Assembly: GCA_035652335.1 (NCBI GenBank) | Contig: DASRDZ010000010.1 | Span: 39,594 to 103,593, forward strand | Reading direction: 5' to 3' | Length of the DNA: 64,000 nt | From: Candidatus Dormiibacterota bacterium | GTDB taxonomy: Bacteria; Chloroflexota; Dormibacteria; Aeolococcales; Aeolococcaceae | Shown here: one piece after another, positions 6,101 through 20,387 of the stretch | Numbering within the stretch: the first letter of the stretch is position 1 | Layout: every line of letters starts with the position of its first letter | Made by a program: the position numbers and the translations under genes | Notes under the pieces: model-generated | What the model was told of the DNA's origin: nothing | What the model saw: only the letters and a program-made list of their open reading frames with translations | Database searches by the model: none

Positions 6101-6858
6101 GGCTCGGTGTAGGCGCGCTCGATGCGCTGCCTGGCCACGTCGCACACCTGCCAGCGCAGCGCCGGCATCCGCGGGTCGTCGGACGGCGCGAAGGGGACCG
6201 CGGGCGGGTCGAAGCCCTTGACGGCGCGGAACTCCTCGGCGAAGCCCGGCGCCCCGGTGCCGAAGCACCACATCTCGTCCTCGAAGAGCGCGACGACGGG
6301 ATCGCCGTCGAGGTCGCCGGTCGACTCCGCCAGCATGCGGTTGACCGCGCCGTCCCTCGCCAGCGTCGCGACGGCGCGCACGTTGCCGAAGTCGAAGCCG
6401 TAGGGAAGCACGGTCGGCCCCGGCGCCGTCATCTCGCCGCGGAAGTCGGGATGCTCGCGCAGCAGCGCGGACATGTCGCGCATGCCGCCCGCCTGGTAGG
6501 GGCTGCCGGTGACGACGCCGAGCCCCAGCTCGCGACAGCGAAGCAGGATGCGCCGGTAGAGCGCGGTGCGCTCGGGCGTGCCCACCGGCGGGTCGTCGCC
6601 GACCGAGCCGCCGGCAGGGCCGAAGGCTGCCAGCGAGGCCGTCGCCACACCGCCGCAGCCCATCTCGACCAGGCGGTCGAGCTGCCAGCGCAGCCGCTCC
6701 TCGTCGAGCTTCTCGCCGCTCCACCACCACGCCGGGATGGGGCGCCACCTGTTCTCCGGGTTGCCCGCGAAGGCGCTGCGCAGCTCGGCGGGATCCGCGA
6801 TCGCGCCGGTCCAATCCATGCGCACAGATGCCCTGGGGGCGGCGTCGTCGACGATCAT
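3178..6858 (-). CDS. Large multidomain glycoside hydrolase (1226 aa; family uncertain, GH106/GH2-like TIM-barrel plus C-terminal beta-sandwich)
   Basis: The real start is the ATG at 6858-6856 (MIVDDAAPRASVRMDWTG...), not the GTG at 7356; the N-terminal 166 codons of the track ORF are Arg-rich junk. This ATG overlaps the stop of the upstream PhyH gene (ATGA), indicating coupling. Motifs include WWWSGEKLDEERLRWQLDRLVEMGCGGV and a C-terminal ...GENLIELEVTNTLAPL tail typical of GH C-terminal beta-sandwich domains. Confidence 0.7.
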   Translation of the reverse strand: MIVDDAAPRASVRMDWTGAIADPAELRSAFAGNPENRWRPIPAWWWSGEKLDEERLRWQLDRLVEMGCGGVATASLAAFGPAGGSVGDDPPVGTPERTALYRRILLRCRELGLGVVTGSPYQAGGMRDMSALLREHPDFRGEMTAPGPTVLPYGFDFGNVRAVATLARDGAVNRMLAESTGDLDGDPVVALFEDEMWCFGTGAPGFAEEFRAVKGFDPPAVPFAPSDDPRMPALRWQVCDVARQRIERAYTEPYARMVRERGLLAGYDQMSRMGTPIIGALAYVDHFRTMAWANAPGSDQMGDIRFHLSLATLTGASRVWLEGFHSQGQGLSLAHQAEALFEWAREGASLFLPHGGYYATRGMWWEWASPEMLWRQPFSRHYAPFAEAMARVMMAAAAGRHHPEVAVLHPLSTVWADTLGHMEWGESAQRANQVYVQLMGHHGSVRWDRPDEWATRSLLHDAGHDRMAVNEDWLDRVPDLPVVLPACRCLPLPVVDALIARAERGVPVVIVEPLPDWSAENGSGDAEFLTHVARLRSLATVVATPAEVPAALPPPRAAGAEVRVQWRRCGDLDLLLCTGEGELRVRGVGPRSAERWEFRDGSVHPLDARLDGDDLLLRLDGPFTIVALPPGEPQRVATPAPSQEIPLAVEWECRYLEWGENRWGDLRLPPNPGTPPVERRTFAWREGDDPAWRSAPVVPEDVEHPMRSLGMEERMSGDNGRVPPRERMLRDGWREVVSTYGPRATVDGVPFEYSERYGIEDVCLETLFGVRGKVETWKAVLPEDGARLVSYGHVPQACDTHLVIEGDAVITVWLDGTHLAGPLDNGVLAIPVHLDAGWHEVAVEVVPRHAPHLAYRGYSKPPPTALSWCFGEPYRRAPVGIWGGRMVHPDYRGAPQARRFRRRITLSEPAEVEVSSSAAATHHVEVPPHLEAGEHVVEAFAGETMTTPSFGCSLRLRLRSGAVLEIGSDERWETCAAGEPWVGAYGLSAGSPLSGWGAREQIERRHTLTDVAWLEGEEVVRGLVPQRWSDSPEPPPPSWFCFLAPPGARSMTLPVDGEVQAWLDGEEVRIDDGVLPLRGGARVAIRVQAQAGGRGAACFREHPVLTLGDGVIRTGISWHRQGLDSFAGVILHRATVRVERDMDAVLDLGEVRGSAGVRVNGEDLGALWCRPWRIEVPLRAGENLIELEVTNTLAPLVARGVPTIYGPEDQRVSGLLGRPRLLRYDH

Positions 6859-7634
6859 CGGCAGCCGCGGAAGGGCATGTGGTCGCCGCTGCGGAAGCGC
6901 GGCGGCGTGGCGTACACGTTGCGGTGCGGCGTCCCGTCGCCGCGGAGCAGGTAGCAGATCGGCCAGGGTTGCTCGCCGCGGATGCGCGTGGTGGTGGGGA
7001 TGTAACGGATGGTCAGCCCGCAGCGGCGGCGCGTCGAGCGGTTCGCGCGCGAGCCGTGCACGATGCTCGGGTGGTGCACCGAGACCCCGCCTCGCGGCAC
7101 CACCACGTCGACGGCGGCGGACTCGTCGACGTCGAGCGCGATCTCGGAGCTGAGCAGGTTCTCGATCGCCGTGACCTCGCGCCGCTCGTGCACCGGCCAG
7201 TCGTGGCTGCCGGGGATGACGCGCAGGCAGCCGTTCTCCGGCAGCGAGTCGTCGACGGCGAGCCAGAGCGAGACCACCTCCATCGGCTCCAGCTGCGGCC
7301 AGTAGGCGGCGTCCTGGTGCCAGAGCACGGGCTGGCCGTCGCCGGGTGGCTTGCACACGTACTGCGAGGCGAAGAGCGCGATGCCGTCGCCGATGAACTG
7401 CGCGGCGACGTCGAGGAGGCGGTCGTCGCCGACCAGGCGCACCCAGAAGGGGTCGTCGGCGAGCAGGTCGACGCCAAGCGTCTCCGGGCGCCGCCCCGGG
7501 TTGCGCGCGGTGAGCCAGTCGACATGGGCGGCCACCTCGTCGATGAGCTCAACGTCGAGGACGTCGGGGAACACCGCGTAGCCCTGGCGGGCGTAGTGCT
7601 GCAGCGGCGACTCGGCGGTCGCGGCGGTGCTCAT
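6855..7634 (-). CDS. Phytanoyl-CoA dioxygenase (PhyH) family Fe(II)/2-oxoglutarate oxygenase, paralog 1
   Basis: 259 aa from the ATG at 7634 (MSTAATAESPLQHYARQGYAVFPDVL...). Carries the HxD...H facial triad context (LWHQDAAYW ... VSVHHPSIVHGSRAN). Its TGA stop (6857-6855) overlaps the ATG of the downstream GH. The track ORF 6855..8045 has an Arg/Gly/His-rich junk N-terminus. Confidence 0.75.
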   Translation of the reverse strand: MSTAATAESPLQHYARQGYAVFPDVLDVELIDEVAAHVDWLTARNPGRRPETLGVDLLADDPFWVRLVGDDRLLDVAAQFIGDGIALFASQYVCKPPGDGQPVLWHQDAAYWPQLEPMEVVSLWLAVDDSLPENGCLRVIPGSHDWPVHERREVTAIENLLSSEIALDVDESAAVDVVVPRGGVSVHHPSIVHGSRANRSTRRRCGLTIRYIPTTTRIRGEQPWPICYLLRGDGTPHRNVYATPPRFRSGDHMPFRGCR

Positions 7635-7648
7635 CGCCGGCGGCCCGG

Positions 7649-8557
7649 TCAGCGGCGGAGGGTCTGCACGAAGCGGCGCAGACGCGACGCTGCCGCCGCG
7701 CCCGCCGCCCCGCCGCTCGGCGCCGGGGGAGCCGGAGCAGGGATGAGGCTGCCGGCGAAGACGAGTGCGCCCAGCGCGGTGAGCAGGGTGCCGGGGAGCA
7801 GGCTGCGCAGCGGCAGCCCGGCGGCGACCGCCCGGATCGGCGTCCTGCGCAGCGGCGCCGCCCTCACCGGTGCTCGCGGCGCCGCCGGGACGACCGGTGC
7901 GGTCTCGACGGTGGGGATGGTGACCACGGCGGGCACCGGCGGCGGCGTGGGCACCAAGAGGTCGGCGGGCGGCAGTGGCGGCAGCACGGTGTTGCCGTCG
8001 TCGGTGGTGAGGATGGTGAGGATCGCCGAGGCCTGGCGGACGCACGGCGTGAGCTGGTCACCGGGATTGGGCAGCGGCACGGGCGGCGCGGCCGGCGGCG
8101 AGGGAGGAGTCACCGGAAGCGCAGGGATCGTGGCCACCGGCGACGTCAAAGGAGAGGGGCAGGCGGTTGCAGCGGGTGAGCCTGCGCCGATGTCCTGATA
8201 CACGGTGACCACCGCATCGCCCGGCGGGTCGTCCTGGGGGATCTCGAAGTTGCACTGCACCGTCCCGGTGTTGCTGGCGGAGCCGACCGCGCACTTCTGC
8301 GCCGGCGCGCCCGGCGCGCAGGCGGGTGCCGGGCAGACCGTCAGCGTGTACCCGACGGAGGGGGCGAACCCCTGCCCGGAGACGCTGATGGTGGCGCCGG
8401 GCAGGCCGCTGGCCGGCGCGACCTGGACGGCCGTCGAGGCCGTCGGCGGGGGCGGCTGGGTCGCGGCGGCCGGGTGCGCGTCGAGCAGCGAGAGCACGCC
8501 GGCCAGCGCCATGGCGGCGGCGACCGCCCTGGCGGCGCGACGGGGAGCTGTGCCCAT
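7649..8557 (-). CDS. Secreted proline-rich membrane-anchored protein (N-terminal signal peptide, C-terminal TM helix)
   Basis: Start trimmed to the ATG at 8557 (MGTAPRRAARAVAAAMALAGVLSLLDAHPAAA is a signal peptide). It has a Cys-containing domain, then long PPxP tracts (TPPSPPAAPPVPLPNPG..PTPPPVPAVV), and a C-terminal hydrophobic anchor (LLTALGALVFAGSLIP). It is the first gene of the operon PhyH1 - GH - SMP30. Confidence 0.55.
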   Translation of the reverse strand: MGTAPRRAARAVAAAMALAGVLSLLDAHPAAATQPPPPTASTAVQVAPASGLPGATISVSGQGFAPSVGYTLTVCPAPACAPGAPAQKCAVGSASNTGTVQCNFEIPQDDPPGDAVVTVYQDIGAGSPAATACPSPLTSPVATIPALPVTPPSPPAAPPVPLPNPGDQLTPCVRQASAILTILTTDDGNTVLPPLPPADLLVPTPPPVPAVVTIPTVETAPVVPAAPRAPVRAAPLRRTPIRAVAAGLPLRSLLPGTLLTALGALVFAGSLIPAPAPPAPSGGAAGAAAASRLRRFVQTLRR

Positions 8558-8599
8558 TCCCAACCAACCTCTTCTTCCCGCCCTCCGGGCGACCCTTCG

Positions 8600-8685
8600 G
8601 CGGCCCGGCGGCGACTCTAGCATTGACCACCTCGTATGATTAGGTAAAAATTCTAACAATGCAAGGTGGAGGAGGAAGGAAGGCC
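8600..8685. promoter_or_regulatory. AT-rich divergent promoter region between the Pro-rich/PhyH/GH operon (-) and the ABC transporter operon (+)
   Basis: TTGACCACCTCGTATGATTAGGTAAAAATTCTAACAATG lies in a roughly 72% GC genome. It contains TATGAT and TAAAAAT-like -10 candidates, and a strong RBS block GGAGGAGGAAGG follows. Confidence 0.4.
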
Positions 8686-9201
8686 GTGCCTGCGCGGTCC
8701 GCTGCCCGCGGCGCACGCCTGGCCGCGCTGGCCGGGGCGCTCGCCGCGGCCGTCACCCTGAGCGGCTGCGGCGTCCGGCTGCAGGCCAACCACCTGGTGG
8801 TGCGCATCGACGCCGCCGGCATGCACCTCGTCAGGGTCAACGGCAGCGCGGCCCGCGCCGGCACGGCCATCCCCTCGGGAGAAACCGTCATCGACGTCAT
8901 CAACGCCGACCCGCAGCTCGCCCACACGGTGAGCCTGGTGCAGGGCGTCGCCACGCCGGGCGCTCTCCCCGAGCGCGTGCGCGCCGCCCGCCTGGTCAGC
9001 GACGACCCCGACCAGATCCTCGACATGACCGACTCGCTCGACCGCGACCAGGTCAAGGTCAGCGCCAGCGGCGGCATCATCGACGACCCCCAGACTGCGC
9101 AGTTCCACGAGTACCTCGCGCCCGGCCAGGCCTACCTCATCGTCGACGTGGCCCACGCGAGCCGCGACTGGCTCGCCATCACCCCGAGCGGCGCCGCATG
9201 A
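8686..9201 (+). CDS. Small lipoprotein of unknown function (lipobox LSGC)
   Basis: GTG at 8686 sits 10 nt after GGAGGAGGAAGG (8668-8680). Signal plus lipobox: MPARSAARGARLAALAGALAAAVTLSGC. The stop TGA 9199-9201 overlaps the ATG of the next gene (ATGA). The ATG at 8659 chosen by the track lies inside the RBS. Confidence 0.6.
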   Translation: MPARSAARGARLAALAGALAAAVTLSGCGVRLQANHLVVRIDAAGMHLVRVNGSAARAGTAIPSGETVIDVINADPQLAHTVSLVQGVATPGALPERVRAARLVSDDPDQILDMTDSLDRDQVKVSASGGIIDDPQTAQFHEYLAPGQAYLIVDVAHASRDWLAITPSGAA

Positions 9202-11537
9202 ACGCTCCACGGACCGCCACGCCGCAGGGCGTCCGTCCCACCGGGACGGCGGCCGCGCTTGGGCTGCGCCTGCGGGCGAGCTGGCGAGCCATGGCGGCGG
9301 CGCTGGCGTCGGAGGCGCGCCTCTGGGCGCCCGCCGCGGTGTGGGCGCGGCTGCGCGCCCTGCCGCTGCGGCGGAGGGTCGCCATCGCCGGCTGGATCGG
9401 CCTGGTGGTTGCCGTCATGATCGCCGGCAACCTGCCCTTCGGCAGCGACCACGGCATCCTCCTGCCGCGCAAGATCCCGCTCGGACTGGTGCTCCAGGGC
9501 GTGATCTTCGGTGCGGTGTACTCGCTGGTGGCCATCGGGCTGGTGCTGGTCTACCGCGCCGGCCGCTACATCAACTTCGCCCAGGGCGGCGCCGGCGCGG
9601 TGGGCGTGGTGCTCACCGCCAAGCTCATCCAGATCACCGGGATGAACTTCTTCCTCGCCGCGATCGTCGGCGTGGCGGCAGCCGGGCTGCTGGCGATGCT
9701 GGTGGAGGTGCTGGTCTTCCAGGGCCTGCGCATCTTCAGCTCGCCGCGCCTGGTCGCCACCGTGGCCACCCTCGGCGTGATGCAGCTCTTCGGCTTCGTC
9801 GAGTACATGGTGCGCGGCATCGAGGCGGACCACTACTACAACCTGCTGCCCATTCCCAAGGCGCCGCTCAACCTCTCGTTCAGCATCGGCATCGTCGACT
9901 TCAACGGCGCCCACGTCCTGGTGCTGCTGGTGGTGCCGGTGGTGGTGCTGGCGCTGACGCTGTTCCTGCGCCTCACCGACTTCGGCGCCGCCATCCAGGC
10001 CGCCGCTGAGAATGCGGACCGCGCCCGGCTGGTGGGCATCACGGTGCGCCGCATGCACACCTACGTGTGGGCGATCGCGGGCGTGCTCAGCGGGCTCACC
10101 GCCATCCTCGCCGCGCCCTTCTTCAACTTCTCCAACGGCGTCAGCTCAGGACCGTCGCTCTTCCTGCTCGCCCTGGCACCCGCGGTGCTGGGTGGCATGA
10201 ACAGCCTGGCGCAGACCTTCTTCGCCTCCCTCGGGCTCGGCGTGATGGAGTCCGTGGTGGGCTGGAACTACAACGTGGCGACGCTGGAGATGGTGCTCCT
10301 CGGCGTGCTGCTCGTCGGCCTGCTGCTGCGCCGCCGGTTGACCAGCCGCACCACCGAGGGCGAGGAGCGCTCCTTCGCGGTGGCCTCGCGGGTGCGCCAG
10401 TTCCCACGCGAGCTGGCCAGGTTGCCGCTGGTGCGCGCCTGGCGCGGGGGCTTCCGCGCTCTGCTGCTCGGGATGGCCGTCCTGCTGCCGCTCGGCTTCG
10501 ACCTGCAGCACCAGGTGGAGGCCGAGAACGTCCTCGTGTTCATCATCGCCGGCGTCTCGCTGGTCCTGCTCACCGGCTTCTCGGGGCAGATCTCCTTCGG
10601 GCAGTTCGGCATCGTCGGCTTCGGTGCGCTCTTCGGCGGCTGGCTGCTCACCAACGCGGGCCTCGACTACTGGACCTCGATGCTCGTCGTCACCGTCGCG
10701 GGCGGCATGGTGGCGGCGGTCATCGGCATCCCCGCACTGCGCATCCGCGGCCTCTTCCTCGGGGCGGTGACGCTCGCCTTCGCGCTCGCCTGCACCGACT
10801 ACTTCTTCTCCGACAGCGGCCACTTCCCCATCTTCACGCCGAGCGGGCCCGTGCACCGTCCCAGCCTGCCCTTCGGCTGGGACCTGGGCACCCAGCTCGA
10901 CAAGGCGGGCGACGAGCTGCACCTCTACTGGTTCTGCCTCGGCGTGCTGGTGCTGGTGATGCTGATGGTCCGCGCGCTGCGCAACAGCCGCTGGGGGCGC
11001 GCCTTCCAGGCGGTGCGCGACAACGAGCGCGCCGCCAACGCCTACGGCGTGGGCTCGATGCAGACCAAGCTGCTCGCCTTCGCCGCCTCGGGGATGATCG
11101 CCGCGCTGGCCGGCTACCTCTACATCACCGTGCAGCAGCAGGTGGCCCCGACGTCGTTCCCGGTGACCACCTCGCTGGTGCTCTTCAGCGCGGTCGTCAT
11201 CGGCGGGCTCGGCTCGCTCTCCGGCGCGGTCATCGGCGGCCTCTTCTTCGAGGGCGTGCAGTACTTCATCAAGGTGGACGCCATCCAGCTGCTGACCACG
11301 AGCCTCGGCTTGCTGGTGGTGCTGGCGTTCTTCCCGGGAGGGCTGGGCTCGCTGTTCTTCAACGTGCGCGACGCGCTGCTCCGCCGCTACGCGCTGCGCC
11401 GCCGCATCGTGGTGCCGTCGCTGCTCGCCGACCGTCGGGTCGAGGACGGCACGGCGCCGGATGCCGAGGCTGCGCTGGTGGGCAACGCGGTCACCGCCGC
11501 AGCACCGGTCGGCGTCGGCGTGGGAGGAGGACAGTGA
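9198..11537 (+). CDS. Fused LivH-LivM branched-chain-amino-acid-type ABC transporter permease (two permease domains, 779 aa)
   Basis: The first half carries a LivH-like signature (LVAIGLVLVYRAGRYINFAQGGAGAVG) and the second half a LivM-like one (LLTGFSGQISFGQFGIVGFGALFGGWLL). The ATG overlaps the upstream stop; the stop TGA 11535-11537 overlaps the GTG of the next gene. Confidence 0.85.
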   Translation: MNAPRTATPQGVRPTGTAAALGLRLRASWRAMAAALASEARLWAPAAVWARLRALPLRRRVAIAGWIGLVVAVMIAGNLPFGSDHGILLPRKIPLGLVLQGVIFGAVYSLVAIGLVLVYRAGRYINFAQGGAGAVGVVLTAKLIQITGMNFFLAAIVGVAAAGLLAMLVEVLVFQGLRIFSSPRLVATVATLGVMQLFGFVEYMVRGIEADHYYNLLPIPKAPLNLSFSIGIVDFNGAHVLVLLVVPVVVLALTLFLRLTDFGAAIQAAAENADRARLVGITVRRMHTYVWAIAGVLSGLTAILAAPFFNFSNGVSSGPSLFLLALAPAVLGGMNSLAQTFFASLGLGVMESVVGWNYNVATLEMVLLGVLLVGLLLRRRLTSRTTEGEERSFAVASRVRQFPRELARLPLVRAWRGGFRALLLGMAVLLPLGFDLQHQVEAENVLVFIIAGVSLVLLTGFSGQISFGQFGIVGFGALFGGWLLTNAGLDYWTSMLVVTVAGGMVAAVIGIPALRIRGLFLGAVTLAFALACTDYFFSDSGHFPIFTPSGPVHRPSLPFGWDLGTQLDKAGDELHLYWFCLGVLVLVMLMVRALRNSRWGRAFQAVRDNERAANAYGVGSMQTKLLAFAASGMIAALAGYLYITVQQQVAPTSFPVTTSLVLFSAVVIGGLGSLSGAVIGGLFFEGVQYFIKVDAIQLLTTSLGLLVVLAFFPGGLGSLFFNVRDALLRRYALRRRIVVPSLLADRRVEDGTAPDAEAALVGNAVTAAAPVGVGVGGGQ

Positions 11538-13573
11538 AGCTCCGCATCGCCATGCCCAAGCGGCGCCGCACGCGCGTCCTGCTCGCCGGCGCCCCGCTGT
11601 ACCCGATCATCGCGCTGGCCCTGGTCAGCGCCCTCGACCAGCTCGACCTCGCCGTCTTCGGCGTCGTCTTCCCGGAGATGAAGGCCGACCTGCACTTCTC
11701 GCTGCAGGACGTCTTCTGGATCGGCTTCCCGGCGTCGCTGCTCGGCTGGTGCGGCATCTTCGTGATCGGCGCCCTCGGTGACCGACTCCGCCGGGTGACG
11801 CTGTCCTGGATCCTGGCGGCCGTCTTCGGGCTCAGCTCGTTCCTCACCGGAGCGGTGATCAGCTGGCCGCAGCTGGTCCTGCTGCGCACCTTCAGCGTGC
11901 TGCCCAACTCCTACACGTCGCTGCACCACAGCCTGATCGCCGACATCTACCCTCCCGAGGGTCGCGGCTTCGCGATGGGCCTGTGGACCGCGCTGCGACC
12001 CGCCGGCTTCGTCGCCGGCAGCCTGCTCGCCGGCGTGCTGGCGGCGGTGGCCAACTGGCGGCTGGCCTTCCTGGCGCTGTCCATCCCCGTCATCGCCGCG
12101 GTGGCGATGCTGTTCCGGGTGCGGGAACCCGCGCGCGGCGCGCAGGAGTTCGAGGCCTCCACCGCCGCATTCGCCAGCCAGGTTCACCTCGGCCCCATCC
12201 AGAGCGTCAAGCTGCTGCTCAACATCCGGTCGTACCGGCGGCTGATGTGGGCATACGGCGTGATCGGCATGGGCGTGGGATCGCTGGTCCCCCTCTCCGC
12301 CTTCGTGTACCAGGGCGTGTTCGGCGTGGGACCGTTCGGACGGGGCCTCATCAACGCCGTCACGCAGCTCATGGTCTTCCTCAGCAGCGTGGCGGCGGGA
12401 GCCCTGCTGCAGCGCTTCTCGCCGCGCTTCATCACCCTCGCCAACGGCCTCCTCGTCTCGGCGGCCGGGCTCTCCTACCTGTTCCTCGCCCTCGCGCCGA
12501 CCGCGGGACTCGCCGTCGCGTCGCAGCTCATCGGCAGCGCCGCCTTCGGCATCTTCTCGGTCGGCACCTTCCTGCAGGTGGCGGCGACGACTCCGGCCAA
12601 CATCCGGACCATGGCCTTCGCCGCGGCGGGCATCTTCATGATCCTCGGCAACCTCTGGGGTCCGATCGCCCTGGGCATCGGCGCCAGCCAGGGCTACCGG
12701 GTGGCCCTGCTCGCCTCCTTCTGGTGGTACATCGTCGGCGGCCTGGTGGTCGCCGACGGCGCACGGTTCGTGAAGCGTGACCAGGAGCGCGCCAACACGG
12801 TGCTGCGGGCCGAGGCGGAGGCGCGCCGCCGCCGCGCCGCCGGCGAGAAGCTCGCCCTGCTCGACGTGCGCCACCTCGACGTGGCCTACGGCAACGTGCA
12901 GGTGCTCTTCGACGTCTCGATGCAGGTCACCGAGGGCGAGATCGTCGCCCTGCTGGGCACCAACGGCGCCGGCAAGTCGACGCTGCTGCGCACCGTCTCC
13001 GGCTTGATCCGTCCCACCGAGGGCGTGGTGCTCTTCGAGGGCTCGGACATCACCGGCCTCGACGCGGAGCTGATCACCAAGCGCGGCGTCATCCACGTGC
13101 CCGGTGGGCGCGGCGTGTTCCCCGGGCTCACGGTGCGCCGCAACCTGCGGCTCGGCACCTACCTCTACCGCTCCGACCCGCTCTTCCGCGAGGAGCGCAT
13201 GGAGTACGCCCTGTCCTTCTTCCCGCGGCTCGGCGAGCGGCTCGACCAGGCCGCAGGCAGCCTGAGCGGTGGCGAGCAGCAGATGCTCAACCTGGCCCAG
13301 GCGATGATGGTGCAGCCACGCCTCCTGCTCATCGACGAGCTGTCGCTGGGCCTGGCGCCGCGCATCGTGGAGGAGATCCTCCAGGTCGTCGAGAGCATCG
13401 CCGCCAGCGGCGTCACCATCGTGCTCGTCGAGCAGTCGGTGAACATCGCGCTCAGTCTCGCCTCGCGCGCCTACTTCATGGAGAAGGGCGAGGTGCGCTT
13501 CGAGGGCCGCAGCGCCGACCTCGCCGACCGCGACGACCTGGTCCGCTCCGTGTTCCTGGCGGGGGCGCGCTGA
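11534..13573 (+). CDS. Chimeric protein: N-terminal 12-TM MFS-type transporter domain (about 415 aa) fused to a C-terminal LivF-like ABC ATP-binding domain (about 255 aa)
   Basis: GTG at 11534 lies 6 nt after GGAGGAGGA and overlaps the upstream TGA. The MFS motif A is present (GALGDRLRRV) across many TM segments. The C-terminus has Walker A (LLGTNGAGKST), the ABC signature (LSGGEQQ) and Walker B (LLLIDELSLGL). The track ORF 10067..13573 upstream of 11534 is an Arg-rich artefact overlapping the permease. Confidence 0.8.
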   Translation: MKLRIAMPKRRRTRVLLAGAPLYPIIALALVSALDQLDLAVFGVVFPEMKADLHFSLQDVFWIGFPASLLGWCGIFVIGALGDRLRRVTLSWILAAVFGLSSFLTGAVISWPQLVLLRTFSVLPNSYTSLHHSLIADIYPPEGRGFAMGLWTALRPAGFVAGSLLAGVLAAVANWRLAFLALSIPVIAAVAMLFRVREPARGAQEFEASTAAFASQVHLGPIQSVKLLLNIRSYRRLMWAYGVIGMGVGSLVPLSAFVYQGVFGVGPFGRGLINAVTQLMVFLSSVAAGALLQRFSPRFITLANGLLVSAAGLSYLFLALAPTAGLAVASQLIGSAAFGIFSVGTFLQVAATTPANIRTMAFAAAGIFMILGNLWGPIALGIGASQGYRVALLASFWWYIVGGLVVADGARFVKRDQERANTVLRAEAEARRRRAAGEKLALLDVRHLDVAYGNVQVLFDVSMQVTEGEIVALLGTNGAGKSTLLRTVSGLIRPTEGVVLFEGSDITGLDAELITKRGVIHVPGGRGVFPGLTVRRNLRLGTYLYRSDPLFREERMEYALSFFPRLGERLDQAAGSLSGGEQQMLNLAQAMMVQPRLLLIDELSLGLAPRIVEEILQVVESIAASGVTIVLVEQSVNIALSLASRAYFMEKGEVRFEGRSADLADRDDLVRSVFLAGAR

Positions 13574-14415
13574 TGGCCAGGCCGGTCGCGCTCGAGATCC
13601 GCGACGTGCTGGTGCAGTTCGGCGGCGTGCGCGCGGTCGACGTCGAGCACATGGCCATCAGGCGCGGGCGCATCGCCGGCCTGATCGGGCAGAACGGCGC
13701 CGGCAAGACCACCCTCTTCGACGTCATCAGCGGCTTCGTGCCGCAGCGCCGCGGCTCGGTCGTCCTCGACGGCGAGCACGAGCTGACCGGCCTCTCGCCG
13801 GTGCAGCGCGCCCACCTCGGCCTGGGACGCAGCTTCCAGGCCGCCACCCTCTTCGAGTCGCTGACCGTCGCCGAGTCGCTGATGGTCGCCTTCCACACGC
13901 GCATGGAGAGCAGCGGTCCGCTGTCGTCGGCGCTGCAGCTTCCCTGGGCGCGGCGCGAGGAGCGCGCGGTGCGGGTGCGCGTCGACGAGCTGATCGACCT
14001 GATGGGCCTGGGCGCGTTCCACGACAAGTTCATCAGCGAGCTGTCCACCGGGACGCGGCGCATCGTCGACCTGGCCGGCGTGCTCGCCCTGCAGCCCAGC
14101 GTGCTGCTGCTCGACGAGCCGTCGAGCGGCATCGCCCAGCGCGAGGTGGAGCAGCTCGGCGCGCTGCTCCGCGAGGTGCGCGAGGCGCTCGACTGCACCA
14201 TGGTGGTGGTCGAGCACGACATCCCCCTGGTGCGCACGCTCTGCGACGAGCTGTATGCGATGGAGACCGGGCGCGTCATCGCCCACGGCACCTGCGACGA
14301 GGTGCTGTCCGACGACAAGGTTGTGGAGTCCTACCTGGGCGGCGGCAGCCGCGCGGTGGAACGGAGCGGCGCCGCCACGGCGCCGGTCCCGGTTGCGATG
14401 GGAGGAACGCTGTGA
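13573..14415 (+). CDS. LivG-like ABC transporter ATP-binding protein
   Basis: Walker A (GLIGQNGAGKTTLF), signature (LSTGTRR) and Walker B (LLLDEPSSG). The ATG shares one nucleotide with the upstream TGA (TGATG). Confidence 0.85.
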   Translation: MARPVALEIRDVLVQFGGVRAVDVEHMAIRRGRIAGLIGQNGAGKTTLFDVISGFVPQRRGSVVLDGEHELTGLSPVQRAHLGLGRSFQAATLFESLTVAESLMVAFHTRMESSGPLSSALQLPWARREERAVRVRVDELIDLMGLGAFHDKFISELSTGTRRIVDLAGVLALQPSVLLLDEPSSGIAQREVEQLGALLREVREALDCTMVVVEHDIPLVRTLCDELYAMETGRVIAHGTCDEVLSDDKVVESYLGGGSRAVERSGAATAPVPVAMGGTL

Positions 14416-14975
14416 GCAGCACGACGATCAGCCGCGTCTCGAACCTGGGACGCGGTGTCAGCGCACTGGGACCGAAGCTGAAGCGCTTCGGCTCGCGGGC
14501 CGCGTCCGCGTCGGGGACGTGGCGGCGCTACGCCACCCCGCTCGGCCTCGCCGCCGTGGCCGGCGGCTTCGTCCTGCTCATCGAGAGCTGGTGGGACGGC
14601 AGCGGAACGCCGGACGCACGCGTCGAGCTCCAGGACGTCATCTCGGCGATCGGCGCGGGCGCGCTGGTCATCGCCGGCATGCTGCTCATCGTCGGCGAGC
14701 TCTTCATGTCGATGCGGCGCAGCGGCGAGCGGCAGTCGGAGCGGATGATCGCCGCGCTGCAGCAGATCGCCGCCGGCACCGCCGCGCAGCAGGAGACGGG
14801 CGGCGCCGCGGCAGTCAGCCCGTCGTCGGTGGTTCTGGCCAGCCATGCCTCATACCACACGCCCACCTGTGACCTCGTCCTGGGACGCGAGGGGGTCACC
14901 GTGACCACGCTGAGCGAGGCACACGCCAAGGGGTTGACCCCCTGCCGCGCCTGCCTCGGTGGAGGAGACCGCTGA
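14412..14975 (+). CDS. Small two-TM membrane protein with a C-terminal Ada-type zinc-binding domain (YH-x3-C ... A-x2-G-x2-PC-x2-C)
   Basis: GTG at 14412 is 6 nt after GGAGG and overlaps the upstream stop (GTGA). Two hydrophobic helices (LGLAAVAGGFVLLIESWW and AIGAGALVIAGMLLIVGELFM) are followed by SYHTPTCDLVLGREGVTVTTLSEAHAKGLTPCRACLGG, which matches the Ada_Zn_binding consensus (YHrpdC...eeAeaaGyrPCkvC). Confidence 0.6.
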   Translation: MSSTTISRVSNLGRGVSALGPKLKRFGSRAASASGTWRRYATPLGLAAVAGGFVLLIESWWDGSGTPDARVELQDVISAIGAGALVIAGMLLIVGELFMSMRRSGERQSERMIAALQQIAAGTAAQQETGGAAAVSPSSVVLASHASYHTPTCDLVLGREGVTVTTLSEAHAKGLTPCRACLGGGDR

Positions 14976-16750
14976 TGCACAGCACGCGCCGAGCCCGTCA
15001 CGTCCGTCTGCTGGTGATGCTGGGGCTGGCGGGGATCCTGGCCGGCTGCTCGCGCACACCTCCGGGCGGGATCATCGCGGGCGGCGGTCTTGGTGGCGCA
15101 GCGGGGGCGGCGGACGCGCAGACGCAGACGAGCGCGGACTCCTCGGCGACGGCCGGCAGCGGTGCGGGTGCGGGCGCGGGCGCCGCGGGCGTCAACGGCG
15201 CAGTGGCCGGCGCGGCGGGCGCGGCCGGTGCCACGGGCGGCTCCGCGGTCGCGGCGGCGGCCGCCTCCGGCCCCACGGGTGAGAAGCCGATCGCGTCGTG
15301 GCCCGGTGTGACGCCGACCACCATCGACATCGCCATCGCCGCCAAGCTGCACAACTGCAGCGAGTCGAACAACCCGCAGGAGTCGAGCGCCGGCACCTGG
15401 ACGCAGAAGTACGCCGACCTGGTCTCCGCCTACGTCGACTACGTCAACAAGTACATCCCCCTCCCCGGCGGCCGGAAGCTGAAGCTGGTCGGCAACGACA
15501 ACACCTTCGGCATCCCGCTCGTCGACGACGGCGGCCAGTTCTGCCCGACGCAGCAGGCTGCCGCCGGCCGCTACGTGGTCAACTCGCTCAAGCCCTTCGC
15601 CGCCCTGTACTCGCAGCCGACGCCCTCGGGCCCGGTGTTCGACGAGACCGTGGCCAACGGGCACGTCCTCGACATCGGCCAGGGCTGGCCGACGGTGCAG
15701 TCGATGACCAGCCGCTGGCCCTACGCCATCGGGGTGGCGGTGGTCGGCGAGCCGCTCGACCAGCACATGGGCTACCTCGCCGACTACGTGCACAAGCGCC
15801 TGCAGAGCACGCAGTACACGCCGCCGGCCGGGCCGTCGCAGCCGCGCAGCTACGGCGCGATGATCTACGACGACCCGTTCTACAACGGGCTGGCCAGCGA
15901 GACGCAGCAGCTCTTCGGACAGTTCGGCATCAGCGTCAAGATCTACCGGATCAGCAGCAACACCGCCACCGCCGCGCAGCAGGCCAACCAGGTGGCCCTG
16001 CAGATGAAGCAGGACGGGGTGAACACGATGATCTGGGGAGTGGTCGGCCAGCCCGGCATCGTCATGGCCAACGCCTTCGACTCCGAGGCCTACTACCCGG
16101 ACAACCTGCAGGCCTACAGCGGCGTCGCCTTCTGGGACACCGACTACTCGCACACGCAGTGGTCCCGCGCCTTCGGCATCGGCACCCCGTCGATCATCGC
16201 CGAGCGCAACGACACCACCCACTACACCACCGCCTTCGAGGGTGGTGACGCCTACGACGAGGTGTGGGCCAAGTCGACCCAGTACGACGGCAACACCGCG
16301 CAGAACGGTGCCGACGGCTACGGCATCTGGAACAACCTGATGACCCTGACGGCGGGCCTCGAGCGCTCGCCGGTCAACTTCACACCGACCTCGTTCGCCG
16401 ACGGGCTGGACTCCTCGGCGACGCAGTACCGCTGCGTCGAGGAGCGCTTCTGGGGAACCGACCACCCGCAGCTCTTCCGGGTGGCCTGGTACAAGGACAA
16501 CCCCGCAGGCGCAGAGGGGTACACGACCCTCTACTGGGTCAACAAGCAGTCGTCGTTCGGCACCCCGGGCTACTACGAGTCGTACGACGGGTACTACACC
16601 TACTTCGGGCTCAACGACCTGCCCAACTCACCCTCCGACGACACGGCCAACCAGTCGGTGCCGCCCATCAAGCAGATCCCGCACATCGGCGTCGACCCCT
16701 TCAAGTCGTGCCCCAGCATCGGGCTGCAGGGTGGCCTCTACGAGCACTGA
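14975..16750 (+). CDS. Large lipoprotein, putative divergent periplasmic-binding-protein-like substrate-binding component (591 aa)
   Basis: ATG at 14975 overlaps the upstream TGA. Lipobox LAGC, then a roughly 90-aa Gly/Ala/Ser-rich linker (GAGAGAGAAG...), then a roughly 480-aa globular domain. Position and lipidation suggest it is the operon's binding protein; its length and sequence are atypical for LivK. Confidence 0.6.
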   Translation: MHSTRRARHVRLLVMLGLAGILAGCSRTPPGGIIAGGGLGGAAGAADAQTQTSADSSATAGSGAGAGAGAAGVNGAVAGAAGAAGATGGSAVAAAAASGPTGEKPIASWPGVTPTTIDIAIAAKLHNCSESNNPQESSAGTWTQKYADLVSAYVDYVNKYIPLPGGRKLKLVGNDNTFGIPLVDDGGQFCPTQQAAAGRYVVNSLKPFAALYSQPTPSGPVFDETVANGHVLDIGQGWPTVQSMTSRWPYAIGVAVVGEPLDQHMGYLADYVHKRLQSTQYTPPAGPSQPRSYGAMIYDDPFYNGLASETQQLFGQFGISVKIYRISSNTATAAQQANQVALQMKQDGVNTMIWGVVGQPGIVMANAFDSEAYYPDNLQAYSGVAFWDTDYSHTQWSRAFGIGTPSIIAERNDTTHYTTAFEGGDAYDEVWAKSTQYDGNTAQNGADGYGIWNNLMTLTAGLERSPVNFTPTSFADGLDSSATQYRCVEERFWGTDHPQLFRVAWYKDNPAGAEGYTTLYWVNKQSSFGTPGYYESYDGYYTYFGLNDLPNSPSDDTANQSVPPIKQIPHIGVDPFKSCPSIGLQGGLYEH

Positions 16751-16789: not shown

Positions 16790-17584
16790 TCACCGCGCCA
16801 GGCTGAAGGTCTCGGTGAAGAAGGCGCGCGTGACCTCGTTCTCGAAGTGGCCGTGCAGCGTGGCGCGGTGGATGGTGGGGATGTAATGCCCGAGGTGCAG
16901 CGCCGAGTCGCGGTACACGGCCACGTCGCCCGCGGACAGCGCGACCATCCGCGCGCCAGGCATGGAGCGGCGGTAGCGCGAGGCGGCGACCACGTACTCC
17001 TCCTCGCTCACCCCGTCGCGGCTGGGCGGCCCGGCGGCGAGGACCCGCGCCTCCTCGGGGGTGTCGTCGCGCACGTGGCTGCCGGGGACGACCCACAGCG
17101 ACATGTCGTCGTAGAGGGCGGCGTTGAACTGGTTGAAGAAGCGGAGGTCGGGGACCAGGGTGCGCCAGCGCTCCACGTCGGCCTGGGGGACGTTGTCCCG
17201 GTAGTCGCGGTGCCAGCGCTGGCACCACGACCCGGTGCTGCGCTGGAAGAGGACCGTGAAGGCCTCGGCGTCGAGGGCGAAGTCGGTGCCGAGCAGGCGG
17301 TCGACGACGCGGCGCAGGCGGGGCAGCTCGGCGAGCGCCGCGAAGGGCGCGGTGTCGATGCGCTCGCCGTAGTCGAGCAGCACCCTGCCGCCCACCGTGC
17401 CACCCGGCGGGCGCGTCGCGTCGGGGCCCAGCGTGGACCGCGTGTGGGCGCGAAGCACCTCGACCTGCTCGCGCATCCGCGCCAGCAGCGGCCCGGGGAT
17501 GGCGTCGGTGACGACGGTGAGGCCGTCCCGCGCGTATTCCTCGGCGTGGCGGTCGAGCTCGGCGGCCTGCATGGCTGCTCGCAT
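16790..17584 (-). CDS. PhyH-family Fe(II)/2OG dioxygenase, paralog 2
   Basis: 264 aa with clean non-repetitive sequence (WHRDYRDN ... VVPGSHVRDD ... ALHLGHYIP). Convergent with the substrate-binding-protein gene, with a hairpin between them. Confidence 0.8.
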   Translation of the reverse strand: MRAAMQAAELDRHAEEYARDGLTVVTDAIPGPLLARMREQVEVLRAHTRSTLGPDATRPPGGTVGGRVLLDYGERIDTAPFAALAELPRLRRVVDRLLGTDFALDAEAFTVLFQRSTGSWCQRWHRDYRDNVPQADVERWRTLVPDLRFFNQFNAALYDDMSLWVVPGSHVRDDTPEEARVLAAGPPSRDGVSEEEYVVAASRYRRSMPGARMVALSAGDVAVYRDSALHLGHYIPTIHRATLHGHFENEVTRAFFTETFSLAR

Positions 17585-17625: not shown

Positions 17626-18660
17626 ATGCTGCAGACCGTCGACCGCGTCCTCGACGTGGCCCGCGAGTTCGTCGAGAGGGGCTGGGATCGCGGCATCGCC
17701 GTGGCGGTGCTGCGAGACGGAGCCTGCGTCGTCGACGCCGTCACCGGCACCGACCTCGACGGGTGCCCGCTCGACACCGGCACGCGCTTCCTCTGGTTCT
17801 CGGCCAGCAAGCCGCTGACGGCGTTCTGCGTGGTGATGCTCGCCGACCGCGGGCTGCTCGGCTACGACGACCCGCTGGTGCGCTGGATCCCCGAGATCGG
17901 CGGGGGCGAGCGGGCGCGCATCACCGTCGACCATCTGCTCACCCACCGCGCCGGCATCCCCGACTTCTTCTGCACGGGGGTCACGGTCGAGGACTGGTAC
18001 GACTGGGATCGCGCGGTGCGGCTCACCGCCGCCCTCCCGCTGGAGTACGCACCGGGCAGCCAGACCGCTTACCACGCGCTGAGCTTCGGGCTGCTCGGCG
18101 AGCTGGTGCGGCGGGTCGACGGCCGGCCCTTCGCGCGGTTCTTCGCCGAGGAGGTGGCCCGGCCGCTCGGCCTCGACACGGTGACCTGGGGACTTCCGGA
18201 CAGGTCTGTCCCCTACACGCGCACCGGCGTCGAGGGCCAGGCGGAGGCCGCCAACGTGCACCGCTTCCAGACCGGCGCGGCGCTCGACGCCGTGGTGCCC
18301 GCCGGCAACGCCTGGGGGACGGCGCGCGACCTGGCGCGCTTCCATCAGATGCTCGGCGACGGCGGCGAGGGTCTCGTCTCGCCGCACTCAGCGGCCGAGA
18401 TGGTGCGTGCGCGCGTCGACGGCCACCAGGGCATGCTCGGCCGCGGGGTCGAGGTCGGACGCCGTCCCGGCGGCTGCACCGGCGACCTCGCCGGCCCGCG
18501 CGTCTTCGGGCACCCCGGCATCCGCTCGACGGTCGGCTGGCACGACCCCGACACGGGAGTGTCCTGCGCCATCCTCTGCAACGGAACGCCCGGCCCTGAG
18601 GAGGGCGAGCGCCGGCTGTCTGCCATCAGCGACGCGGTGATCACGGCGACGCGCGCGTGA
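17626..18660 (+). CDS. Serine hydrolase, class C beta-lactamase/esterase family (SxxK)
   Basis: Active-site motif FSASKPLTAF, with YHALSFGLLG downstream and a HPGIRSTVGWHDP region near the C-terminus. The stop overlaps the GTG of the next gene. Confidence 0.8.
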   Translation: MLQTVDRVLDVAREFVERGWDRGIAVAVLRDGACVVDAVTGTDLDGCPLDTGTRFLWFSASKPLTAFCVVMLADRGLLGYDDPLVRWIPEIGGGERARITVDHLLTHRAGIPDFFCTGVTVEDWYDWDRAVRLTAALPLEYAPGSQTAYHALSFGLLGELVRRVDGRPFARFFAEEVARPLGLDTVTWGLPDRSVPYTRTGVEGQAEAANVHRFQTGAALDAVVPAGNAWGTARDLARFHQMLGDGGEGLVSPHSAAEMVRARVDGHQGMLGRGVEVGRRPGGCTGDLAGPRVFGHPGIRSTVGWHDPDTGVSCAILCNGTPGPEEGERRLSAISDAVITATRA

Positions 18661-19472
18661 CCCGCAGCGGCGTGGTGCACCGGCCCGACGGTGCGCGCAT
18701 CCCCTGGGAGCTGCTCGGCGACGGCGGCGGTCCGCGCATGGTGTTCGGCCACAGCCTGATGGGCCGCGGCCTCGGCGCGGAGCCGATCTACCGCCCGCTC
18801 CTCGACGGCGGCTGGGCGATGCTCACCATGGACCAGCGCGGGCACGGTGAGGCCTCGCCGCCACCGGGCGGCGACTTCGCCGTGGAGACGCTGGCCGGCG
18901 ACATGCTGGCGGTGCTCGACGAGGTGGGGTGGGACACCGCCTGGCTGGGCGGCGGTTCGATGGGCGCCGCCGTCGCCACCGCCGCCGCCGCGCTGACGCC
19001 GCATCGCGTCGAGGGCCTGGCCCTGCTGGCGCCCGCCGTCGGCGGCGCACCCAATCCTGCGCTGCAGCCGTTCGCCGCGCTCGGCGACGTCTTCGGGCGT
19101 GACGGCCTCGACGCCGGCATCGCCGCGTACTCCGCCATGGCACGCGAGAACGGCGCGGACGAGGCCCTCCTCGCCCTGCGCGCCGAGCAGTTCCGCATGC
19201 AGCCTGCGGAGAGCTGGGTCGCCGCGCTGCGCGGCATCGCGCGCTGGAACCTGGCGGAGGCGCTCGACGCGGTGCAGGAGCTCGACGTCCCAACCGCCGT
19301 CGTCGCCTGGACCGGCGACGACGTGCACCCGTTGAGCGTCGCCGAGGACCTGGTGCGGCGCCTGCGCGACGCGCGACTGCACGTGCTGCAGGAGTGGAAC
19401 GGCGACCCCGCGCACCTCTTCCGCGTCATGCTCGACATGACGCAGGCCGTCAGCGCCGCCCGCCCACGCTGA
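18657..19472 (+). CDS. Alpha/beta hydrolase fold protein
   Basis: GTG start overlaps the upstream TGA (GTGA). Nucleophile elbow GGGSMGA plus an HGE motif; 271 aa. Confidence 0.75.
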   Translation: MTRSGVVHRPDGARIPWELLGDGGGPRMVFGHSLMGRGLGAEPIYRPLLDGGWAMLTMDQRGHGEASPPPGGDFAVETLAGDMLAVLDEVGWDTAWLGGGSMGAAVATAAAALTPHRVEGLALLAPAVGGAPNPALQPFAALGDVFGRDGLDAGIAAYSAMARENGADEALLALRAEQFRMQPAESWVAALRGIARWNLAEALDAVQELDVPTAVVAWTGDDVHPLSVAEDLVRRLRDARLHVLQEWNGDPAHLFRVMLDMTQAVSAARPR

Positions 19473-20364
19473 GCAGTCGCGACGGCGGGGTGCGCCGCTC
19501 GCTGACGATGTCGAAGCGCTGCACCACGCGCATCGGCCGCGGCGGCTCGATCCACTGCGCCGTCGACCAGCCACGAGTCAGCTCGTCCCAGTCGGGGATG
19601 AGCGGGAAGTAGTGCGGCCTGAGGCCGAAGTCGACGACGGCGTCGTCGCTGCGCTGGTAGCGGAAGTCGACGGAGAGACGCAGGCGATCGGTCGTGTTGG
19701 GCACCGAGCCGTGCACGGTGAGGCTGTGGAAGAGCAGCACGTCGCCGGCCCGGAAGTCGGTGGCCACCCATCGCGGGTCGTCATGGCGCACGCGCACGCC
19801 GACGCCGCCGGTGCCGACCATGCCGTGCACGCGGCGGAAGCCGTGCCGGTGCGAGCCGCGCAGGACGCGCAGGCCGCCCATCGCGGCCGGCACGTCGCCG
19901 AGCGGGATCCACATGGTCAGAACGTCGACCGTGCCCTGGATCAGGGGGAAGTCCTGGTGCGGGGGGGTGATGAAGCCGGGATCCTGGGGCAGGCCGGCGC
20001 GGAGGATCTTCAGCGGGTAGACGAGCAGCTCGCCGTCGCCGTGCGCGTCGAGCACCGCCGACGCCAGCGCGCGCAGGTGGGGGTGGAAGGCGAAGCGATG
20101 GAAGCTCTCCATCGCTTGCACGGCGGCGTACATGTCGGGGAAGGTCTCGCCGCCCTCGCGGCAGGCGCGCGGACCGGGATGCGCCTCGGCGGGATCGCCG
20201 CCCGCTGCGATCCACCCCTTGTCCTGCAGCGCTGTGGCGATCTGGGCGCGGATGTCCAGAACGTCGGCGCGGGGGAGGAGGCCGCGCAGCAGCAGGTGGC
20301 TGTCGCGGTCGAGCCGCCGGCGCAGCGCCTCGCCCTCGCCGAGCAGCGCCGTGGAGTCGACCAT
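19450..20364 (-). CDS. PhyH-family Fe(II)/2OG dioxygenase, paralog 3
   Basis: Start trimmed to the ATG at 20364 (MVDSTALLGEG...), 24 nt downstream of the GH51 stop. Metal triad context PPHQDFPLIQG ... LTVHGSVPN. Confidence 0.8.
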   Translation of the reverse strand: MVDSTALLGEGEALRRRLDRDSHLLLRGLLPRADVLDIRAQIATALQDKGWIAAGGDPAEAHPGPRACREGGETFPDMYAAVQAMESFHRFAFHPHLRALASAVLDAHGDGELLVYPLKILRAGLPQDPGFITPPHQDFPLIQGTVDVLTMWIPLGDVPAAMGGLRVLRGSHRHGFRRVHGMVGTGGVGVRVRHDDPRWVATDFRAGDVLLFHSLTVHGSVPNTTDRLRLSVDFRYQRSDDAVVDFGLRPHYFPLIPDWDELTRGWSTAQWIEPPRPMRVVQRFDIVSERRTPPSRLLSVGGRR

Positions 20365-20387
20365 GGCCGGCGCGGCGGCGGTGCTCC

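Follow-up and report, generated by a model that had tools for sequence, protein, structure and literature searches.

We analysed a window of 64,000 nucleotides (nt), the whole stretch of contig DASRDZ010000010.1 presented above, in which six consecutive genes of the + strand, called g1 to g6 below, encode a Liv-type ATP-binding cassette (ABC) uptake system, one ATPase of which is fused to a domain of the major facilitator superfamily (MFS). The six open reading frames (ORFs) run from 8659/8686 to 16750 and are bordered on both sides by genes of the - strand; the window has a G+C content of about 72%. The ORF list and a reading of the sequence place the six ORFs and their five overlapping junctions exactly where the original prediction had put them (Table 1). 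The related lineage it had named, Thermoleophilia, was wrong: the source is a metagenome-assembled genome (MAG) of Candidatus Dormibacteraeota. The six proteins have database entries (HZS13345.1 to HZS13350.1), in which g1, g5 and g6 are labelled "hypothetical protein".

The expression signals are simple. A sigma70-like promoter lies upstream of g1, inside a short AT-rich island at 8620-8660 (TATGATTAGGTAAAAATTCTAACAATG) whose surroundings have 72-75% G+C; it is the only promoter-like site between positions 8300 and 17000, where shuffled sequences give 0.3. Strong Shine-Dalgarno runs precede g1, g3, g5 and g6, the one in front of the GTG start of g1 at 8686 being GGAGGAGGAAGGAAGG, and this start is the same as that of the database gene call, which gives 171 amino acids (aa). 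In our own tally from the gene tables of related loci, overlaps of 1 or 4 nt were found in about 15 of the 53 other same-strand neighbour pairs. Since overlapping junctions are frequent in these genomes, the five successive overlaps show that the operon is tight without being exceptional. The six genes are a real, tightly packed operon for a Liv-type ABC uptake system.

Table 1. Genes, gene junctions and promoter of the operon (positions in the window; TM, transmembrane; AF2, AlphaFold2)
Feature	Position	Strand	Description	Basis or motif
Promoter	8623..8651	+	sigma70-like, upstream of g1	TTGACC, 17 nt spacer, AAAAAT
g1	8686..9201	+	171-aa lipoprotein, predicted cupredoxin-like beta-sandwich	lipobox LSGC; AF2
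g1/g2 junction	9198	+		ATGA
g2	9198..11537	+	779-aa fused LivH-LivM type permease	two BPD_transp_2 domains
g2/g3 junction	11534	+		GTGA
g3, N-terminal part	11534..12853	+	MFS domain, about 12 TM helices, and linker of about 35 aa	MFS_1
g3, C-terminal part	12854..13573	+	LivF/UrtE-type ABC ATPase domain	LivF/UrtE profiles
g3/g4 junction	13573	+		TGATG
g4	13573..14415	+	280-aa LivG/UrtD-type ABC ATPase	profile matches and BCA_ABC_TP_C
g4/g5 junction	14412	+		GTGA
g5	14412..14975	+	187 aa, two TM helices and probably cytoplasmic C-terminal zinc-knuckle-like motif	
g5/g6 junction	14975	+		TGATG
g6	14975..16750	+	591-aa lipoprotein, divergent Peripla_BP_6-related domain	lipobox LAGC

The transporter core and its MFS-LivF fusion

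The third gene encodes a protein of 679 aa in which two transporter domains follow one another. The N-terminal part matches the Pfam model MFS_1 over its entire length (positions 1-347 of 347), scoring 124.7 bits where the cut-off is 33.4 (E 5e-36), and its hydropathy profile displays 11 clear segments and a weaker TM4. The C-terminal part matches LivF (E 5.6e-62) and UrtE (E 2.3e-58) and has the expected motifs of an ATPase (Walker A GTNGAGKS, signature LSGGEQQ, Walker B LLLIDE). We found 2049 homologues of g3 at E <= 1e-10. In the best 119 of these, MFS and ABC Pfam domains are present together in every protein (119/119), hence the fusion is not the product of a frameshift. The MFS-LivF chimera is therefore genuine, and the situation named beforehand as fatal to it, namely that MFS and LivF are separate genes in all relatives, does not obtain.

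Among these best 119 relatives, 102 are about 1000 aa long and 16 about 680 aa. The longer form is an MFS-LivF-LivG triple fusion, with the same order of domains as g3 followed by g4, and the fact that most of the 119 carry the three parts on one chain argues for a fixed stoichiometry, as had been proposed for the window. The relatives were collected from NCBI, JGI, ENA and Logan assemblies and belong to Acidimicrobiia, Frankiales, Gaiellaceae and others; one of them is encoded by the cultured Rhabdothermincola sediminis (WP_208028158.1).

To follow conservation along the protein, we used an alignment of 119 fusion proteins, that of the window and 118 relatives of at least 600 aa. The mean identity to the window protein is 29% for the MFS domain against 60% for the LivF domain. 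Thirty-three positions of the MFS domain are conserved at 90% or more, among them D35 and D38 in TM1, D83-R84-x2-R87 in motif A, R118 in TM4, and G158 and G167 in TM5, residues by which MFS carriers achieve their conformational switching and proton coupling. Motif A (G-x3-D-R/K-x-G-R-R/K, between TM2 and TM3) reads GALGDRLRRV in g3. Two linker positions, D416 and G437, reach the same level of conservation.

The nearest PDB entries to the MFS domain are EmrB and NorA, and the closest curated models are those of DHA2 and of the aromatic-acid/H+ symporters. With the drug:H+ antiporters of the DHA2 and DHA1 families and the aromatic acid:H+ symporters the domain shares motif A, the Arg of TM4 and the Asp of TM1. 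However, the matches are largely confined to the six N-terminal helices and stay far below all family cut-offs, and none of the EmrB/NorA-type or aromatic acid:H+ carriers is fused to an ABC ATPase, unlike g3. The MFS domain is thus a distinct lineage of the superfamily, and it looks functional.

The remaining parts of the core are more conventional. The permease g2 matches BPD_transp_2 in two stretches (E 1e-60), and a comparison of Pfam and NCBIfam profiles makes its N-terminal half LivH/UrtB-like and its C-terminal half LivM/UrtC-like; a sequence search of g2 against the PDB gave nothing useful. The ATPase g4 matches UrtD (E 4e-57) and LivG (E 7e-55) and ends in a BCA_ABC_TP_C tail. Its Walker A (GQNGAGKT), Walker B (VLLLDE) and H-loop (VVVEH) can be read without difficulty, whereas the signature has degenerated to LSTGTRR. 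Both g4 and the ATPase domain of g3 have Walker A, Walker B and the catalytic Glu, so that the catalytic motifs of the two ATPases are intact. The Pfam and NCBIfam searches thus agree with the identities first given to these three genes (LivHM, MFS-LivF, LivG), and the skeleton of a Liv-type importer, two BPD_transp_2 domains and a pair of LivG- and LivF-type ATPases, is in place.

These names must be taken with care. The NCBIfam equivalog test does not support orthology of the present system to either LivHMGF or UrtBCDE: the scores are far under the equivalog cut-offs (209 against 441 for LivF, 193 against 304 for UrtD). Since this holds for all the NCBIfam scores, no substrate follows from the Liv and Urt names; we rejected a substrate read from the name Liv, and these names should be understood as describing only how the system is built.

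The candidate for the binding protein is g6. A Peripla_BP_6 search of g6 itself gave no match, and neither the profile of the g6 family nor the homologue of g6 in a Gaiellaceae locus gave anything useful against the PDB. This Gaiellaceae protein, which is 26.7% identical to g6 over 472 aa (E 3e-34), does match Peripla_BP_6 (47.8 bits against a cut-off of 31.7; E 2e-12). As g6 is homologous to a protein matching this family, it is, by transitive homology, to be regarded as a very divergent LivK-type binding lipoprotein, and the likeness to LivK suspected at the outset is borne out in this indirect way. The lipobox cysteine C25 is invariant in 8 sequences, the lipoprotein assignment being predicted from the motif. 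The family also has four invariant Cys residues and a conserved C-terminal extension of about 100 aa rich in Trp, Tyr and Gly. The Gly/Ala linker described earlier does exist in g6, where it is disordered and has about 80 aa, not the 90 aa then claimed. Only eight close relatives were found in the k-mer-indexed database. Proteins resembling g6 adjoin the transporter in every locus sampled; in the four triple-fusion loci they were recovered (E 4e-15 to 3e-22) by a profile built without them, and they carry an N-terminal TM anchor instead of a lipobox.

Conservation of the set, accessory proteins and neighbouring genes

We scanned the window and 15 loci (L001-L015) with profiles of all the components, and read the gene tables of two more (L016, L017). 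The full set (g1, LivHM, MFS-LivF, LivG, g5 and g6) is present in the window and in L001, L004, L007, L010, L011 and L015, and the MFS domains of these seven loci go down to about 36% identity to that of the window. The Gaiellaceae locus has all the components but g5. The triple-fusion loci (L006, L012, L016 and L017) have LivHM, the fusion and the g6-like protein only, which means that g1 and g5, both lacking in the four of them, are not essential to the core design. In the loci of the two-gene class g1 is found in 8 out of 8. The window has g5, and of the 9 loci which are complete at that position, 8 have it as well. The reciprocal test gave a consistent picture: a metagenome scan with g5 as query recovered three loci, in all of which g6 adjoins, with the whole set wherever the contig is long enough.

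The order of the genes is less strict than their association. The succession g2-g3-g4 is constant across loci, and wherever a locus reaches past the fusion gene on its upstream side, g2 is the immediate neighbour there. Both g1 and g6 vary in position and in strand: g1 is placed before g2, or after g4 or g5, and g6 may be adjacent, lie upstream, stand on the other strand or be 3-4 kb off. The association is conserved, and the exact six-gene order is specific to the close relatives of the window (L004, L013). Of the idea that the operon is conserved as a unit, one part thus stands, since the components travel together down to about 30-36% identity, and the other, a fixed order of six genes, does not. 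One can also notice that the g3 homologue of L001 (MAG GCA_964499205.1, 16717-18149) has an MFS part spread over two reading frames, with a called gene of no more than 443 aa, so that one deals there either with a frameshift of the assembly or with a pseudogene.

Two small proteins accompany the core. An exhaustive phmmer search of 1.84 billion representatives gave 16 representatives of the g1 family, all of 150-180 aa, in which the lipobox cysteine C37 is invariant (here too the lipoprotein assignment is predicted from the motif), together with G74, E75, T76, N82, P104, H150 and D163. Searches of family members against Pfam and NCBIfam at lenient thresholds returned noise only. The fold, first described as unknown, is predicted to be cupredoxin-like: the AF2 model has a mean predicted local distance difference test score (pLDDT) of 89.9, and its top Foldseek matches in the PDB are azurin, auracyanin and rusticyanin (probability 1.00), with the N-terminal domain of EfeO also matched, in a range of E 2e-4 to 1e-2 and of target-normalised TM-scores of 0.45-0.61. 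Auracyanin is membrane-tethered, as g1 is predicted to be. The resemblance to blue copper proteins stops at the fold. A type-1 copper site requires a His-Cys-His-Met/Gln ligand set; in the family alignment g1 has no conserved C-terminal Cys-x-His-x-Met loop, and it cannot form the site because the lipobox cysteine is its only Cys. A copper protein was therefore rejected. What g1 conserves instead is E75, N82, H150 and D163, and we describe it as a predicted lipid-anchored protein of cupredoxin fold without copper ligands.

In g5, hydropathy gives two hydrophobic segments (39-59 and 73-103). As positive charges flank both of them, the N- and C-termini are probably cytoplasmic. The loop between the helices has four invariant residues (T66, D68, R70, Q74), and the C-terminal part carries the motif HASYH-x3-C-x24-C-x2-C, with invariant H145, H149, C153, C178 and C181, within a family block HASYH-x3-C-D-L ... 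G-L-x-P-C-x2-C. This motif had been called an Ada zinc-binding motif. The resemblance is one of motif: the spacing (x3, about x24-26, x2) is similar to that of the Ada N-terminal zinc domain, an "A..G..PC..C" segment is found in both, and hhalign aligns g5 to the N-terminus of E. coli Ada with a probability of 79.9% over 41 columns, placing H149, C153, C178 and C181 on Ada Cys38, Cys42, Cys69 and Cys72, a match to be taken as no more than a lead. Membership in the Ada family, on the other hand, found no support in the searches. No match was obtained for g5 in Pfam, Ada_Zn_binding (PF02805) included, at E <= 0.1, nor for Ada_Zn_binding against four g5 relatives and one small paralogue of the g5 hairpin at E <= 10; family members gave only noise against Pfam and NCBIfam at lenient thresholds, and g5 gave nothing useful against PDB sequences. 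A PDB search with the profile of the C-terminal block yielded trivial uS14 zinc-knuckle matches only, and no Ada. The four-Cys zinc ligand set of Ada is not found in g5, which has a His at the methyl-accepting Cys38, and its domain sits on a two-TM hairpin and has no DNA-binding or AraC-type partner. We thus rejected the idea of a genuine Ada domain, for want of a match to an Ada model and for the His in place of Cys38. A structural zinc site is the simplest reading of the motif; a sensor role for g5 is speculation.

Several neighbours of the operon recur in the other loci. At the very start of the window, an ORF of the + strand cut by the window edge (1-1137) is 45% identical over 388 aa to a protein of 834 aa, without a Pfam match, which directly follows g6 in L004; members of this family also follow g6 in L014 (78%) and stand beside the g6 homologue in L001 (790 aa). 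The protein at 1-1137 may be a further partner, displaced here by about 7.5 kb. Divergent from the operon, at 7649-8716 on the - strand, is a gene for a secreted Pro-rich protein of 355 aa with a weak neocarzinostatin-like match (E 4e-4), whose homologues occupy the same position in L004 (62%), L009 (42%) and L001 (36%). A very long ORF (3178-6954, - strand, at least 1258 aa) has no Pfam match at E <= 0.001.

Three genes of the PhyH family (phytanoyl-CoA dioxygenase-like) surround the operon, all on the - strand (6855-7640, 16790-17584 and 19450-20391), and PhyH genes are also near the system in L001, L004 and L012. Downstream are a beta-lactamase-fold gene (17626-18660) and an alpha/beta hydrolase gene (18657-19472), with the same continuation in L004. 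In the more distant loci L005, L007, L010 and L011, sulfatase genes (PF00884) lie within a few kb of the transporter, accompanied by GH3, MGH1-like glycosidase and MR_MLE genes. This recurrent sulfatase and glycosidase context may be a clue to the class of the substrate, and the neighbouring genes as a whole hint that the substrate may be an organic compound and not a plain amino acid. The distant loci of the two-gene class have in addition a conserved pair after g5 (L007 13475-14682, L010 13651-14963, L011 13508-14577, L015 about 6712-7829), made of a protein of 266-321 aa and of a two-TM protein of 90-116 aa which resembles the hairpin of g5, without its zinc motif. The pair has no Pfam match where tested, and is absent from the window and its close relatives.

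A possible mode of action and its rivals

The system has clear relatives among the known ones. With LivHMGF-LivJ/K and UrtABCDE (HAAT, TC 3.A.1.4) it has in common the two BPD_transp_2 domains, a LivG/UrtD with its BCA_ABC_TP_C tail, a LivF/UrtE, a putative binding protein related to Peripla_BP_6 (through the homologue of g6) and the organisation in an operon. It departs from them in that LivH and LivM are fused, LivF is preceded on its chain by a 12-TM MFS domain, Pfam and PDB searches miss the putative binding protein, which is extended by 100 aa at its C-terminus, and two conserved subunits, g1 and g5, are added. Its other relatives are the triple-fusion proteins of Acidimicrobiia and Frankiales, annotated "MFS transporter" in RefSeq (WP_208028158.1, for example), which have the same MFS lineage and order of domains, the same fused LivHM immediately upstream and the same g6-like neighbour. 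In the window, by contrast, LivG is a separate, translationally coupled gene, g6 is a lipoprotein where theirs is TM-anchored, and g1 and g5, which they lack, are present.

Of the explanations we considered, we favour, as reasonably probable, a binding-protein-dependent ABC importer of HAAT type provided with a stoichiometric MFS module and with lineage-specific accessory subunits. In such a system g6 would capture an organic substrate, the loaded g6 would dock on LivHM, and the binding and hydrolysis of ATP by the LivF/LivG heterodimer would drive import. The substrate is probably not a simple branched-chain amino acid, since g6 is divergent and the neighbours include PhyH, hydrolase and (in relatives) sulfatase genes. 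The MFS domain would stand beside LivHM in a 1:1 ratio, tethered to LivF by the linker of about 35 residues. Because motif A and the buried Asp and Arg residues have been kept, the domain is most likely a proton-coupled carrier which still cycles, not a dead anchor; it may also be a docking platform for g1 and g5. The former would be an accessory subunit on the outer face, the latter a two-TM accessory subunit exposing its zinc knuckle to the cytoplasm. In this picture the domain identities, the fusion, the conservation and the co-occurrence are observed, and the direction of transport, the class of substrate, the activity of the MFS domain and the parts played by g1 and g5 are inferred.

A number of observations weigh against this explanation. 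The MFS domain has diverged far more rapidly than the ATPase to which it is attached, and the carriers which it matches best are of an efflux type (DHA2/EmrB), which is awkward for an importer. Both LivF and LivG score far below the equivalog cut-offs. In g6, no sequence match was found in Pfam (Peripla_BP_6 included), NCBIfam or the PDB, the AF2 model computed from an alignment of 8 sequences is unusable (pLDDT 36.7), and its identity as a binding protein hangs on one transitive link. None of the four triple-fusion loci sampled has the accessory proteins g1 and g5. Finally, full-text searches of the literature brought up no paper on an MFS-LivF/ABC fusion.

The same data can be read in other ways. 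It is possible, if unlikely, that the MFS domain is transport-dead and behaves like a TMD0, anchoring LivF and recruiting g1, g5 and g6 to an ordinary Liv-type importer. A domain which diverges about twice as fast as its ATPase and for which no MFS subfamily model comes near its cut-off would suit such a scaffold, as would the covariation of g1 and g5 with the two-gene form; moreover, extra N-terminal membrane domains are interaction hubs in ABCC and TAP transporters. A mere scaffold, however, leaves the 33 conserved positions, motif A, R118 and D35/D38 among them, to be accounted for, and the triple-fusion loci keep the MFS domain though they are without g1 and g5. We are more doubtful still of a coupled hybrid, a specific form of the hybrid primary/secondary transporter first proposed, in which the cycle of the ATPases would gate or drive the MFS carrier, so that two pathways would coexist in one ATP-driven machine; an example, to be held just as doubtful, would be import by LivHM combined with a proton-coupled export or exchange of a product by the MFS domain. 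The covalent 1:1:1 ratio of MFS, LivF and LivG in 102 of the best 119 relatives (among 2049), the short linker with its two conserved positions, and the resemblance of the MFS domain to H+ antiporters when the remainder is an importer all speak for it. Yet a fusion shows co-assembly and not energetic coupling, and no characterised precedent was found in the literature searched.

The explanation to which we give practically no credit is an artefact, by which frameshifts or misassembly would have made the fusions and chance the gene neighbourhood. The source is a MAG, and the MFS part is split over two frames in L001, which could have raised this suspicion; but the identical architecture is met in Rhabdothermincola sediminis, which is cultured, as well as in independent assemblies of NCBI, JGI, ENA and Logan, and the full set of components recurs in seven loci (the window and six others). 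Independent assemblies and recurrent loci exclude a frameshift or misassembly origin of the fusion.

The two largest classes of transporters, ABC importers and MFS carriers, are treated as mechanistically separate. Here the ATPase of an ABC importer and an MFS carrier are joined covalently, in a fixed ratio, and such an architecture would surprise transporter specialists. The sequences are already in the databases, where automatic annotation labels the fusion proteins "MFS transporter" or "ATP-binding protein", or gives them an ABC ATPase COG plus an MFS COG; the system is uncharacterised in the literature searched. At least 119 clusters of sequences (at 90% identity), from Actinomycetota and Dormibacterota of soil and sediment, contain the fusion; the window is one instance among more than 100 clusters, and the design is widespread in uncultured soil bacteria.

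We consider it rather improbable that the MFS domain, as a working proton-coupled carrier, has its alternating-access cycle mechanically linked to the LivF/LivG dimer. If this were true, it would be the first known case of a secondary-carrier fold and an ABC importer forming one stoichiometric machine under the control of ATP: for instance, a conjugated substrate would enter through LivHM and its product would be expelled or exchanged through the MFS module, with the copper-less cupredoxin g1 as extracytoplasmic regulator and the zinc-knuckle protein g5 as cytoplasmic regulator. Whatever the role of the MFS module, be it a second pathway, a gate or a scaffold, it bears on the ways in which primary and secondary transport can be combined. 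The analysis also defines three unannotated families, a clade of binding proteins invisible to Pfam, a copper-less cupredoxin lipoprotein and a two-TM zinc-knuckle protein, and thereby improves the annotation of abundant uncultured soil lineages.

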